A DNA stretch of 39,678 nt from a virus (taxonomy: Duplodnaviria > Heunggongvirae > Uroviricota > Caudoviricetes). Shown here in pieces: positions 27,001-33,000 of the stretch; position 1 is the first letter of the stretch; every line of letters begins with the position of its first letter. Made by a program: the position numbers. The DNA lies in IMG/VR virus record IMGVR_UViG_2698536428_000020. The stretch is one strand, 5' to 3'.

Positions 27001-30000
27001 TTGCCGTTGTCGTAGCCGTCATGCAACACGCTCATGACATCGGACACGGTGACGATAATCACGCTTCTCCCCTTCGCCATCAGCCAGTTGCCAATCGCTG
27101 CTGCAAGGTGATTTTTCCCGGTGCCAGGTTTACCGCTGAACACGAAATTCGTGCAGCCGGTATGCAGCTCTGCCGCGATGGATTTTGCCTGACTCAGAGC
27201 ATGGCGCTGACCGTCGTTCTGCACCCGGTAGTTCCCGAATGAGCACTTCCTGTGAAGCGGCTGGATGCCCGAACGATTCAGGATTTTTTCAACCCGCGTC
27301 TGGTGATTCTGGCGGTTAACTTCCTCGCTGCGCTTCCGGCCCTCAGCCAGTTGCCATTCCAGCCACTCGTCGGTCGTCCGGAACGGTGCTGTAACGTGCG
27401 GTGGAACCAGACGGCGCACCCGTTCAAGAATCCCTCCTGTCGAAATGTTTTTCATGGCTGATTACCCCCTGAAACCCGGCGGAATTTCGGTGTCCGGTTC
27501 AGAAATGTGATTCACGCAACGCAGGCTGACTGCGCCAGCCTTCGGCAGCGACCACGGATTTTCGAAATTCCTGTTCGGGCCAAAAAACGTCGATGCCTGC
27601 TGAACAAATTCAGTTCCCGCTTTCCCGGTAGCCTCCAGGTATCTTGCGTAACGCCTCACGCCATCCAGCACGACATCCGGTGACACCCCTTCGCGTAATC
27701 TGGCCCTCCAGGCATTGAACGCGGATTTCTTCGGGTTTGACCCTGCCCGATGCGGATATTCACGCCAGACCCGTTCGAACACGTCAGGATAATCAACTCG
27801 TCCCGCAGACGGTCCCGGCATCGCCCGGGTTAACCCAATCGGCTTCCCGCTCATCGCGGAATCGGCTTCAGGCTGCTGCGGTTGGTGTTGTTGCTCCGGT
27901 TCGACGTGCAGCACCTGCTGCACACAACGCCCGGAATCTGCTTCCGGTGTCATGCCAGCTGGTCCTGGACGTTCAGTCAGAACGGGACAAGAATCCACCA
28001 GTGGGTCCGTGGCGATTTTTTCGCCATGGACCAGAAGGGTTTTATCTCTTTCCTGTTCCTGTTCCTGTTCTTGGCTTGAAAGGGGCTCTGAAGGGGCTTC
28101 AATTTTCCGACATGATTCACGTCTGACATCCAGGTGGAAATCATCCTTATATCTATCATAAAAGGATGATAAAAAAGGATTTTCCAGCAACGCGGAATAT
28201 TCATTTCTTACCCCAGCACAACGGTTATCGCCTGGTTTCAGCGCTTCACCAACCTGCCATGCTGCCATTTCATGCACCCATACAACCTCAGAATCATGGT
28301 CATAGCTGCAAAAACCAGCCTCGCAAGCCATTTGAAGCCCCTTAGAAGCCCCTTCAGGATCAAGTCCGGTTTCGTGAGCAATGTACAAAACAGGCAGGTA
28401 ATAAAGGCCCAGCATATTGGAATGAGGCGAGGTCATCATATACAACGCCACTACCATACATTCCGGACCAGACTTCCTTAGTTTTCGCCCTGTATCGCCT
28501 AACCAGAACTGAGGTGAAATTGTTGCGTAATTACGCATAGTCCCCTCGCATACAAGATTTACTCCATACCGCAGACGGTCCCGGTATCTCCCGGGTTAAC
28601 CCAATCGGCTTCAGGCTGCTGCGGTTGGTGTGACTGCACATTGGTGTGACTGCACATCTTCACAGACGGTCCCGGTATCTCCGGGTTAACCCAATCGGCT
28701 TCAGGCTGCTGCGGTTGGTGTTGTTGCTGGCGAAATTCTTCCAGATGTGGCAGAATTATTCCCGTGTATTGCTCCATGCCCTGCCTGAATATCAGATATT
28801 CATCAGGATTTGCTCAGAACGTCCGGCCCCAACCGGACGTTTTTTATTTGCATGAACGCGAATGGCATGCTGGAAAGCCCGGCTGATCGGACTGATATCA
28901 GATGCCATCTGGAACGCACATAAAATCGCCGCGATGTATCGCCAGTCGGTACGACTGACCTTCGATTCATGGCAGCCAATCATCTTCGCCAGTCCCCTTT
29001 GCGTCAGAACTGACAGGTTGATAAGTAAATCCGTTTCAGCGCGATCGATATCGCGCTGCGACAGTTTGCTGTAACTTGTTTGTGACATTTGTTAATTTTC
29101 CTATATTGATATGGGGTTAAGCGGCAATCCCAATGGGTTTGCCACTGATGTTTGCTCACCCTGTTAGAGGTGAACGACCAGCAATGTTAAAGAGCGGTGT
29201 TACTTATTCAGCCTGGTTCGGATGAGGAAACAGGTGCGGTAAGTCCGGGCGAATTTCGTAAGCCTTAACCTGACCATTGGTGGCATTAACGATAGCGAAA
29301 ACTTTTTCAGGAGAAACTTTTCCGCCTCGCAACCATTTATGAACAGCGGGCTGTGATACGCCGCAATCAGCTGCAAGTCGTTTTTGACTGCCAACAATAT
29401 TCAAGGCTCGCTGAATCACTAAATTCATGAGCATACCTCTACAGCAAATAAAGCATAACCAAAAATAACATGAGTTATACAACAGAGCAATAACAATTGT
29501 TGTTTTACTTTTGATAACCGTGGTTATAGATTACAGGTATGAAAACATTCGCAGAAAGACTAAATGCCGCCATGAGTTCAGCCGGGTTGTCACAAGCACA
29601 ACTTGCAGACATGGTGGGGGTATCACAACCAGCCATACAAAAGATGTCATCTGGTAAAACAACCGGATCACGTAAAATGGTCGAATTAGCCAACGCGTTA
29701 AGAGTTCGCCCTGAGTGGCTAAGCTCTGGTATAGGGTCAATGAGACCACAGAGCGCAGAAGAGCCATCTAATGCTCGGGAATCATCTTTAAAAGCTATCG
29801 CCTGGGATGATCATCAAAATGATAATGACGAATTTGTTGCGCTCCCCCTTCTAAATATTTCACTTTCAGCTGGCGGAGGAAGTTGTGCATTGGAGGAGTC
29901 CGCAGAATTCTCTCTAGTTTTTAGGCGCTATTACCTGAAAAAAATGGGAGTTCCAGAAAAAGCGGCAAAGTTGGTCAGGGTTGTTGGGCAAAGTATGGAG

Positions 30001-33000
30001 CCAACACTCCATGATGGTGATGTGGTGGGGGTAAACACGCAAGATACGAGCATCAGGGATGGTAAAACATATGCAATTTGCCAAGCTGATTTGTTAAGGG
30101 TAAAAACGCTAATAGCCACACCAACATCGGTAATTATCAGATCGATAAACCGCGAAGAGTATCCTGATGAAGTAATGAACAGAGAAGAATTCTACAAAAA
30201 CGTAAAAATCATAGGACGAGTGTTCTGGTCATCACATAGCTGGTAATCAGACTCCAACTGAACTTTTGCTATAAGAACACTCACGAAGAACGGCCTTTTA
30301 TTGTGCTCAATACCACCGATGGTAAACCATTCGCCAAGTAGCCAATTCATAAAATGCCATTTCTAAATCCCCCGGCTCCAGTGCCGGGTTTTATTTACTT
30401 AATTACACAGTCGCATATCCTGAAGTAACACATCTATAGCTAACTTCACAGCGAGATCATCCAATTCATCATGGTGAAGCACTCGGATCATTCCCGCAAT
30501 AGCATCTGCTGAAATAGCTTCCCCAGTAGCAATAACCTCAAGCAACGACACCCCTAGAATTTCGACTACCCGCTGGTGCAACACACCAAATTCCCCTTCG
30601 ATTAACATGCAATCACCCATAACAATCAGCCTTTCCCCCTTGAAAATATCACGCGGATACCACAAAAAATAAAATATTTTTGTTATCAGCCATTTATAAC
30701 GTTTTCCATAAAATGATAAATATAGTTATTGCACAATCAGATAACTTAGGTTATCTTCAATTCAACAGCAGGACGCTGGAAGCCAAACGGAACAGATTGG
30801 CAGGCTCTTTAACATTGATGGACTCTCAACCTAACCGTTGAGACCAAAATCTAAGTGGTTTTGGGGATGACGCGAATTTCAGTTGCAAGGCCGCGATCGA
30901 GAAGAAAAACACCTCGACGCGTCATACACCAAAGCCACTTAAAGGAGACCATCATGGTAACCATAATCTGGAAAGAATCCAAAGGTACGGCAAAAAGCCG
31001 CTATAAAGCTCGCAGGGAAGAACTTATTGCAGAGCGGCGCAGTAGTGAAAGACTGACGCGGAAGATTGCGCTAAAGATCTCTGGTTGCGTCAGAGCAGAC
31101 AAAGCAGCATCACTCGGCAGCCTTCGCAACAAGAAGGCAGAAGAAGTCGAGCGCAAAAACAGAAGTACTTATTACAAGGATTCAAACCCATTAGGAAACA
31201 AAATACATGCAGTTCAAAAAATAAAATTGTACAGTAAACCACCGTATGGACTTATTGAGTATGCTTATGGTGAAAAAGACTATTTATGTTAATCCTAATC
31301 GCGGACAAAACAGAAAAGTATCTGATAGAAGCCTTACATCTCGAGACAGAAGGAGGATAGCGAGATGGGAAAAGAGAATAGCATATGCATTAGAAAACGG
31401 TATAACACCTGGATTTAATGCTATAGATGACGGTCCGGAATATAAGATTAATGAAGACCCAATGGACAAAGTTGACAAAGCATTAGCAACACCATTTCCT
31501 CGAGATGTTGAAAAAATTAAAGATGAAAAATATGAGGATATAATGCACAGAGTTGTTAACCACGCTCACCAACGAAATCCAAATAAAAAATGGTCATAAC
31601 CCACTTCGGTAGATTTTATTGTTTGGACTAACAAAATTTACTACCGCAAGCCACGCAGTGAAACGGGTGTGACTTGTGTTGGTCGCCAGAAAATAAAATT
31701 AGGCAGCAAACCACTTATTTGAAGTGAGATATGGAAGAAGAATTTGAAGAGTTCGAAGAGCATCCACAGGATGTGATGGAACAATACCAGGACTATCCGG
31801 ATGACTACGACTATTGATACAAATCAATGGTGTGGGCAATACGAACTACGGCCATGATTGCCAGAGAACTTAGCAAACAGAAAAACAAGGCTGCCTGATG
31901 GTGGCCTTTATTTTTGGCATAAACAAATCAGTAAAAAAAAGCGAGGTGATTGATGACCACGCCTTCAGTTTTGCCGCAAAAATTATGGCGTCCGCTTGCA
32001 GAGATTAAAAACTTCGTTGAAAAAATGCCTGACGGCGTTCGCCTTACGGAAGTTACTAAAAAAGTTAAGACATTTGCCGAACTGTCAGGAAAGGAGAGAA
32101 ACCAGCTCATAGATTTTATCGATAAACGGGAAAGCATCATTGTATTTAAGGTCAGAAAAGAAGGTTCTGGTAACGGAGTAACCTTTTTCCGCCACAAAAA
32201 ATATGGATATCCCAAGCGGGAAGGAAACGTCACAATCATTAAGGACCTTCAATCAAAATTATGTACCAGATGCGGGCAGACAAAATCAGTCGATGATTTT
32301 TATTCAGATGCCAGCAAACGTGACGGGAGAGCCATTTATTGCAAGAAGTGCGAATCTGCGATGAAACGCTCACGCAGAGAATGCAACAAATTAATTCTGC
32401 AACAACAGGAACCTGAAATGAATAACCTAAAAGCAGTTTCACCTTCACCAGAAATACTCAGAAAGCAGGCGGAAGAATTGCTGAAAGCCGCCGAAATTGC
32501 GGAGAAAAAACGCCAGGAAGATGATGTATTCAACAAAAAACTTGCGCCCTTAAAACTTGAAATTCTTCAGGCCGCCGGAAAAATGCAGCTTAAACTGGAC
32601 GAATTCATCGACTGTATGGATGAAATGAATAAAGCAGTTCAGAAGCTTAAAGAGCTGACCGCCTGATATTAATAAATTGCAACTACCGGAGTTAACTATG
32701 AACGAAACAGAACTGAAGCACATTATCGCCCTGCTTCTGGAAGATGCCAGACAGGTTTATCGACTTAGCCCAAACTCCGCAACGCAGGAACGCATCCGGA
32801 TGGCAGAAAAAGCTCTGAAACAGGAGAGTGAAAATAACATATCCGAAGTTAGCGCGAATGGTGAAAATGAAGCAATAGAAATAAACAGCAATATCAGCAA
32901 CGGCGTAATAGCTTCATCCCACAAGACAATTCTCATGGGCGCACGACTTCTGGAGGTGATTACGAGTGAGCTTGAAAAGAACGGTATCAAGCCCACCCCT

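Follow-up and report, generated by a model that had tools for sequence, protein, structure and literature searches.

The stretch of DNA analysed here (IMGVR_UViG_2698536428_000020, hereafter the window; 39,678 nt, with all coordinates given on the whole stretch) contains a lambdoid immunity region in the order cII-nutR-cro-(OR)-cI-(OL/pL)-nutL-N, where OR and OL denote the right and left operators and pL the leftward promoter. This order is colinear with the annotation of phage 21. The subject of this report is the pair of nut sites, each made of a boxA element followed by a boxB hairpin, that lie on opposite strands on the two sides of the cro-cI cassette. Paired nutL and nutR sites had been proposed at this locus in a sequence-only reading; all of their elements are present, and their positions, the features annotated in phage 21 and the adjacent phi21-type N gene agree with the proposal. 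Sequence comparison makes it very probable that they represent nutL and nutR of a lambdoid Stx1-converting phage with a phi21 N/nut antitermination module. The evidence consists of sequence identity with phi21, the match of the N arginine-rich motif (ARM), the RNA folds, the placement of the sites, and their conservation and joint exchange with the ARM among relatives.

The nut sites and the adjacent N gene

The two boxA elements share the 11-nt sequence GCTCTTTAACA, which has just two matches in the window when one mismatch is permitted. The 6-bp core hairpins that follow are CTCAAC-CTAACC-GTTGAG at nutL (30825-30842, plus strand) and TCACCT-CTAACA-GGGTGA at nutR (29173-29156, minus strand), with spacers of 10 and 11 nt, respectively, between boxA and the core stem. 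The spacer of 10 to 11 nt, the 6-bp stem and the 6-nt loop that had been described from the sequence therefore hold, and the full stems extend to 7 bp at nutL and to 8 bp, including two G-U pairs, at nutR; measured to the full stems, the spacer is 9 nt at both sites. The contrast of differing stems and conserved loops, also described before, is equally apparent, in that nearly every stem position differs between the two sites while each stem is fully paired, and the loops share CUAAC. When the sites were folded with ViennaRNA, the predicted hairpins were the minimum free energy (MFE) structures in both cases, at -8.0 kcal/mol for nutL (z = -7.4) and -11.5 kcal/mol for nutR (z = -4.6), and none of 200 shuffled sequences was as stable at either site.

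The frequency expected by chance was estimated from 1000 dinucleotide-preserving shuffles of the whole window. The exact boxA occurs twice, against a mean of 0.028 per shuffled window, and hairpins with a hexaloop starting with CTAAC occur twice, against a mean of 0.138. The composite of boxA and then a CTAAC-hexaloop hairpin, also observed twice, was found in none of the 1000 shuffles. The motifs and folds of nutL and nutR are real and not due to chance. Since short stable hairpins do occur in untranslated leader and intergenic RNA, the two structures might still be taken for intrinsic terminators, RNase III sites or chance repeats beside chance boxA-like strings. This explanation is effectively refuted by the absence of the composite motif from the shuffled windows, by the identity or near-identity of the hairpins to the curated nut stem-loops of phage 21, and by the exchange of boxB together with the N ARM described below. 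The intrinsic-terminator reading was also rejected in its own right, as no T-run follows either hairpin (CCAAAATC and CAAACATC) and a terminator scan called neither of them.

Both sites lie where nut sites lie in phage 21. The boxA of nutL is about 40 nt into the pL transcript, whose +1 was placed by homology, and 110 nt separate nutL from the N start codon downstream of it; nutR, which precedes cII, starts 8 nt past the cro stop codon. The pL leader is homologous to that of phage 21 from the phage 21 +1 onward, with a mean column identity of 90% over three leaders (window, phage 21 and mEpX1), and between nutR and the cII start the identity to phage 21 is 91%, in a region that in phage 21 carries the annotated terminator tR1. 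The approximate pL start at 30764 coincides with the left limit of phage 21 homology, that is, with the mosaic junction of the immunity region. By its sequence, the locus is a classic lambdoid mosaic, in which an immunity cassette of another kind is enclosed by an N/nut module of phi21 type. In this cassette, operator-like palindromes of the form (G)ATAAC-N3-4-GTTAT(C) were observed at 30740-30755 (GATAACTTAGGTTATC), overlapping the inferred -10 element of pL, and at 29515-29529 (ATAACCGTGGTTAT) between cro and cI; in this immunity type they probably act as the operators for cI and Cro.

The product of the gene downstream of nutL carries an ARM at residues 8-29 (nt 30975-31040; ESKGTAKSRYKARREELIAERR) that is identical to the 22-residue chain A of PDB entry 1NYB at 21 of 22 positions. 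Where the phi21 class has GTAKSRYKARRAELIAERR, the window N has GTAKSRYKARREELIAERR, the sole substitution being A22E, and the full-length protein shares 76% identity with its phage 21 counterpart. Cilley and Williamson reportedly described 1NYB, the complex of the phi21 N peptide with boxB, in 2003. According to the descriptions of 1NYB given in PMC12550061 and PMC6061696, from which the phi21 boxB loop sequence was taken, it is a nuclear magnetic resonance structure of this complex in which the RNA loop is the hexaloop CUAACC; as PMC12550061 describes it, loop position 6 takes part in a non-canonical C-C pair flanking the loop. A full-text literature search for 'CUAACC' returned unrelated papers only. 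The nutL loop of the window is the loop of phage 21 and 1NYB, and the nutR loop, CUAACA, matches it at five of six positions. The sequence-only reading had deduced from the loops a distinct N specificity. It is indeed a non-lambda specificity, as the phi21-type ARM and the CUAACC loop indicate, but it is not an uncharacterised one, since it belongs to the phi21 class. Phi21 specificity has been described since Franklin 1985, as cited in PMC9074901. It is thus already known, and the sites raise no new mechanistic question.

Several results weigh against the identification. An Rfam search of positions 28500-31700 in permissive E-value mode gave sub-threshold matches only, none of them related to the nut sites, for which no curated family was found, and the Pfam N_peptide match of N scored 18.1 bits, below the gathering score of 27.9, and is not counted as membership; for these reasons the identification rests on the comparison with phage 21 and 1NYB. 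A simple sigma-70 consensus scan called neither pL nor the rightward promoter pR, and the two transcript starts were therefore placed by phage 21 homology and by reading of the sequence. The terminators downstream of the nut sites, namely the tL1-like candidate of the pL operon (Table 1) and the terminator-like sites at 23739-23723 and 21410-21391 (minus strand) between nutR and Q, are consensus matches only, and a Rho-dependent tR1 is unrecognisable from sequence. Finally, the CUAACA loop of nutR, in place of CUAACC, and the A22E substitution of N could each alter affinity.

Lambda nut sites direct Nus-factor-dependent processive antitermination, and the same mechanism is expected here. By analogy with the established biology of lambda and phi21, from which N binding, Nus dependence and read-through in this phage are predicted, the nascent pL (plus-strand) and pR (minus-strand) RNAs would each present a single-stranded boxA and, 9 nt downstream, the boxB hairpin. 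NusB:NusE(S10) would bind boxA, and the N ARM would bind the hairpin. N would then remain attached, along with NusA, NusB, NusE and NusG, to the transcribing RNA polymerase and make it resistant to downstream terminators. Read-through would reach the delayed-early genes and Q, and Q would in turn switch on the late operon that contains stx1AB.

Table 1. Positions of the nut elements, the associated genes and the inferred transcription signals in the window
Feature	Position	Strand	Basis
boxA of nutL, GCTCTTTAACA	30804-30814	+	Exact match; identical to the phage 21 boxA-L region and the 11-nt core of rrnB boxA
boxB of nutL, 7-bp stem TCTCAAC/GTTGAGA, hexaloop CUAACC at 30831-30836	30824-30843	+	MFE hairpin; identity with the phage 21 nutL stem-loop
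boxA of nutR, GCTCTTTAACA	29195-29185	-	Exact match; aligns with phage 21 boxA-R
boxB of nutR, 8-bp stem GUUCACCU/GGGUGAGC, hexaloop CUAACA at 29167-29162	29154-29175	-	MFE hairpin; aligns with the phage 21 nutR stem-loop
N, phi21-type antiterminator, 112 amino acids (aa)	30954-31292	+	1NYB ARM identity; phage 21 N similarity
pL promoter (inferred), TTGCAC, 17-nt spacer, TATCTT	30729-30757	+	Read from sequence; position fits the phage 21 pL start
pL transcript start (approximate)	30764	+	Annotated phage 21 +1 (L003:3502) aligns here; alignment with L003:3498-3700
cII, downstream of nutR	28792-29088	-	Pfam Phage_CII, E = 4e-26
cro, first gene of the pR operon	29204-29431	-	Pfam YdaS_toxin/HTH_3/P22_Cro; Cro in the PA28 annotation
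cI repressor (HTH and S24 peptidase), between the divergent pR and pL operons	29539-30246	+	Pfam Peptidase_S24, HTH_3
nun, HK022-type transcription termination/exclusion factor	31267-31599	+	6ALG chain N, E = 2e-68, full length; Nun ARM peptide 1HJI, E = 1.3e-9
Candidate intrinsic terminator of the pL operon, tL1-like, 9-bp stem then T-run	31887-31908	+	Consensus match only
Q late antiterminator, distal target of the N-modified pR transcript (predicted)	19522-20001	-	Pfam Phage_antitermQ, E = 1e-51
stx1A, downstream of Q	17275-18231	-	Pfam RIP
stx1B (presumed), 89-aa open reading frame (ORF)	16996-17265	-	ORF listing

Conservation among relatives and joint exchange of boxB and the N arginine-rich motif

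Eighty viral contigs encoding N relatives were scanned together with the window, phage 21, PA28 and mEpX1. Related phages do carry the motifs at the corresponding positions, as would be expected of nut sites: a phi21-type nutL was kept, 110 nt upstream of the N start, in all 79 contig loci in which N has a phi21-type N-terminus, and a phi21-type nutR was present on the opposite strand in nearly all of them. Loops were counted over 81 sequences with such an N-terminus (the 79 viral contigs, the window and phage 21). At nutL the loop is CUAACC in 79 sequences and CUAAUC in two, and at nutR it is CUAACC in 57, CUAACA in 18, and CUAACU and CUAAUC in one each. No stem covariation could be obtained among the relatives, both stems being essentially invariant across the family, and the sole covariation-like evidence is that the two stems of a given genome, at nutL and at nutR, differ from each other. 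In one contig, L128 (IMGVR_UViG_2909262264_000002), the 3'-stem base that adjoins the loop is A instead of G in both nut hairpins, giving CTAACC-ATTGAGA at nutL, where the closing C-G pair is broken, and CTAACC-AGGTGAG at nutR, where the closing U-G pair becomes U-A.

The loop counts bear on the possibility that nutL is functional and the CUAACA nutR is weakened or degenerate, so that rightward antitermination towards Q and stx1 would be below that of phage 21 or would depend mainly on boxA and Nus factors. Loop position 6, where the window nutR has A, is one side of the C-C flanking pair of 1NYB (PMC12550061), and the constancy of CUAACC at nutL, in 79 of 81 loci, makes this position look constrained there. 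However, the CUAACA nutR is fixed in an inducible Stx1 phage lineage, being found in 18 survey loci, in PA28 and in Stx1a-converting phages. It also occurs once with a phage 21-type ARM (L020), and CUAACU occurs in L067, so that position 6 of the nutR loop tolerates C, A and U. In addition, the nutR stem of this lineage is one pair longer, at 8 bp, and the nutL and nutR of lambda likewise differ at one loop base. A weakened nutR is therefore considered unlikely.

A related idea is that the A22E change of N and the C-to-A change of the nutR loop form a co-adapted pair with a sub-specificity distinct from that of phage 21. The two changes do travel together, since RREEL accompanies CUAACA in 17 surveyed loci and the window, and RRAEL accompanies CUAACC in more than 55 loci. 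However, common descent explains this association, as the phages concerned have one immunity region in common and a uniform nutR-nutL distance of 1608 nt. Their nutL retains CUAACC, so their N must still recognise the standard loop, and discordant combinations exist in L020 (RRAEL with CUAACA) and L067 (RREEL with CUAACU). Co-adaptation is for these reasons highly improbable, and an ordinary phi21-type module remains by far the preferred reading of both sites.

More distant relatives show what happens when the specificity of N changes. In phage SH2026Stx1 (L162, 595-800), which has a P22-type module, the pL leader is nearly identical to that of the window from +1 through boxA; boxB there is GCGCTGACAAAGCGC, with a GACAA pentaloop, and the N ARM is GNAKTRRHERRRKLAIER, of P22 type. 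The C-terminal part of this N is related to that of the window N, and identity is 40% overall. The same leader region was matched equally, at 73.2% identity, in many Stx2a-converting phages. In two further loci (L073 and L074), residues 32-99 of N are 81% identical to the window N, the ARM is different (DNARNRRRARRQAQREQ), and both nut sites have a third boxB, TCCCGC-CGAAAU-GCGGGA. Boxes B and ARMs thus swap together as a specificity cassette, as they should if N binds the hairpin at 30824-30843. A P22-type N/nut module was considered for the window itself, which is an Stx phage, and rejected, as the window lacks both the GACAA boxB and GNAKTRRHERRRKLAIER and carries the phi21 cassette.

As L162, L073/L074 and L146 show beside the window, the homologous pL leader and N backbone, always with this rrn-like boxA, can carry three different boxB/ARM cassettes. 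They are the phi21 cassette (CUAACC), the P22 cassette (GACAA) and an uncharacterised one that combines CGAAAU with DNARNRRRARRQAQREQ.

Neighbouring genes and the Stx1 phage context

The gene directly after N is nun, the start of which overlaps the last 26 nt of N. Its product is about 93% identical to the 6ALG chain, including the ARM and the C-terminal KKWS. N itself has 112 aa, against 99 aa in phage 21, and its C-terminal third has diverged, with an extension that runs into the nun start (31246-31292); this points to a recombination junction within the 3' end of N.

On lambda, Nun acts as a transcription terminator that binds lambda-type boxB, and the nut sites of a Nun-encoding phage must therefore be of a kind that escapes Nun. 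Of 72 fetched loci in which the Nun match reaches at least 90% identity, 58 have phi21-type nut sites and two the CGAAAU type; ten lack any nut-like motif, and a lambda-type boxB is present in none. Lambda boxB was seen solely in loci whose Nun match is limited to the C-terminal 40 residues, at 38% identity. One may imagine that the phi21-type nut/N pair is kept, here and in many other phages, because it is orthogonal to Nun, which could then act through lambda-type boxB to exclude lambda-type superinfecting phages while sparing transcription of the phage's own pL and pR operons. Within this picture, the pair of N A22E and the CUAACA nutR, specific to this lineage, may be a tuned variant that lowers rightward antitermination and hence the level of Q and Stx1. 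The 72-locus survey is consistent with the orthogonality part; the proposal as a whole is doubtful.

Over positions 1-25000 the closest matches of the window are Stx phages, among them Shigella phage 75/02 Stx, and the cI/cro/operator immunity region is that of PA28 and Stx1a-converting phages, with a 99% match. The window is an Stx1-converting lambdoid phage. Q and stx1A were recognised by Pfam matches (Table 1), and the 89-aa ORF listed with them is the one we take to encode Stx1B. Terminator-like hairpins were observed between Q and stx1A, at 18684-18663 and 18477-18456.

The full module, at 80% or more of the query, is present in 50 complete E. coli genomes, and the matches listed are 100% identical and all from human isolates; parts of the module occur in about 1,100 of 5,426 genomes. 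The PA28 record that was examined has no annotation for the nut sites, nor do the listed complete STEC genomes; under the matches in those genomes the features are named as transcriptional regulators and 'hypothetical protein', and none as N. The practical value of the identification is accordingly one of annotation, as it shows which well-characterised N/boxB pair would gate early-to-late expression, and hence the Q-dependent expression of stx1, in these related Stx1 phages.

Two further features were observed near the immunity region. A strong terminator hairpin at 28784-28845 (plus strand), with an 11-bp stem and a T-run, lies antisense to cII at its 3' end, where lambda has the oop RNA; the Rfam AgvB match to the same interval is sub-threshold (20.7 bits against a gathering score of 56). 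An 88-aa ORF without a Pfam match is present at 30399-30665 (minus strand), opposite in strand to cI and situated between the cI terminator (30371-30388, plus strand) and OL/pL; in phage 06-3462 the features under the match to this interval are unnamed hypothetical proteins.

Comparison with phage 21, lambda and the rrn leader

The phage 21 reference was the complete genome OL657228.1, which has a curated pL start, boxA-L, nutL stem-loop, boxA-R, nutR stem-loop and tR1. As far as the nut sites are concerned, the comparison with phi21 that the sequence-only reading had called for gave near-complete agreement. The boxA and boxB of nutL (TCTCAAC-CUAACC-GTTGAGA) are base-for-base identical in the two phages, and the boxA and boxB stem of nutR are identical as well, with a single loop base differing (C in phage 21, A in the window). 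The spacers differ at two positions at nutL and at four at nutR. The placement relative to the pL +1, N, cro and cII is the same. In contrast, the window N carries A22E, a diverged C-terminal third and 13 extra residues, and cI, cro and the operators between the nut sites are unrelated to imm21. The window is an Stx1 converter, with a late region closest to Shigella and E. coli Stx phages.

Lambda has the same architecture and placement, the succession of boxA, spacer and boxB hairpin occurring both in the pL leader and immediately past cro. The boxA elements of the window align with those of lambda, phage 21 and rrnB. However, lambda boxA, CGCTCTTA(A/C), is shorter, the bases after CGCTCTTA being AAAA at nutL or CACA at nutR, whereas the window has the rrn-like GCTCTTTAACA. 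Lambda boxB has a 5-bp stem and a GAAGA or GAAAA pentaloop, and its spacer is shorter than that of the window. The N specificities of lambda and phi21 are not interchangeable, as seen in lambda/imm21 hybrids.

The boxA of the rrn operons was read directly from the rrnB leader of E. coli K-12, tGCTCTTTAACAa, and was not found in the text of PMC2800207 or PMC4807359. Its 11-nt core, GCTCTTTAACA, is identical to both boxA elements of the window, so the description of these elements as rrn-type is accurate; the 12th base is A in rrnB and T in the window. The rrn system works without an N protein and without a phi21-type boxB. In the account given in PMC2800207, NusB:NusE binds rrn boxA more tightly than lambda boxA.

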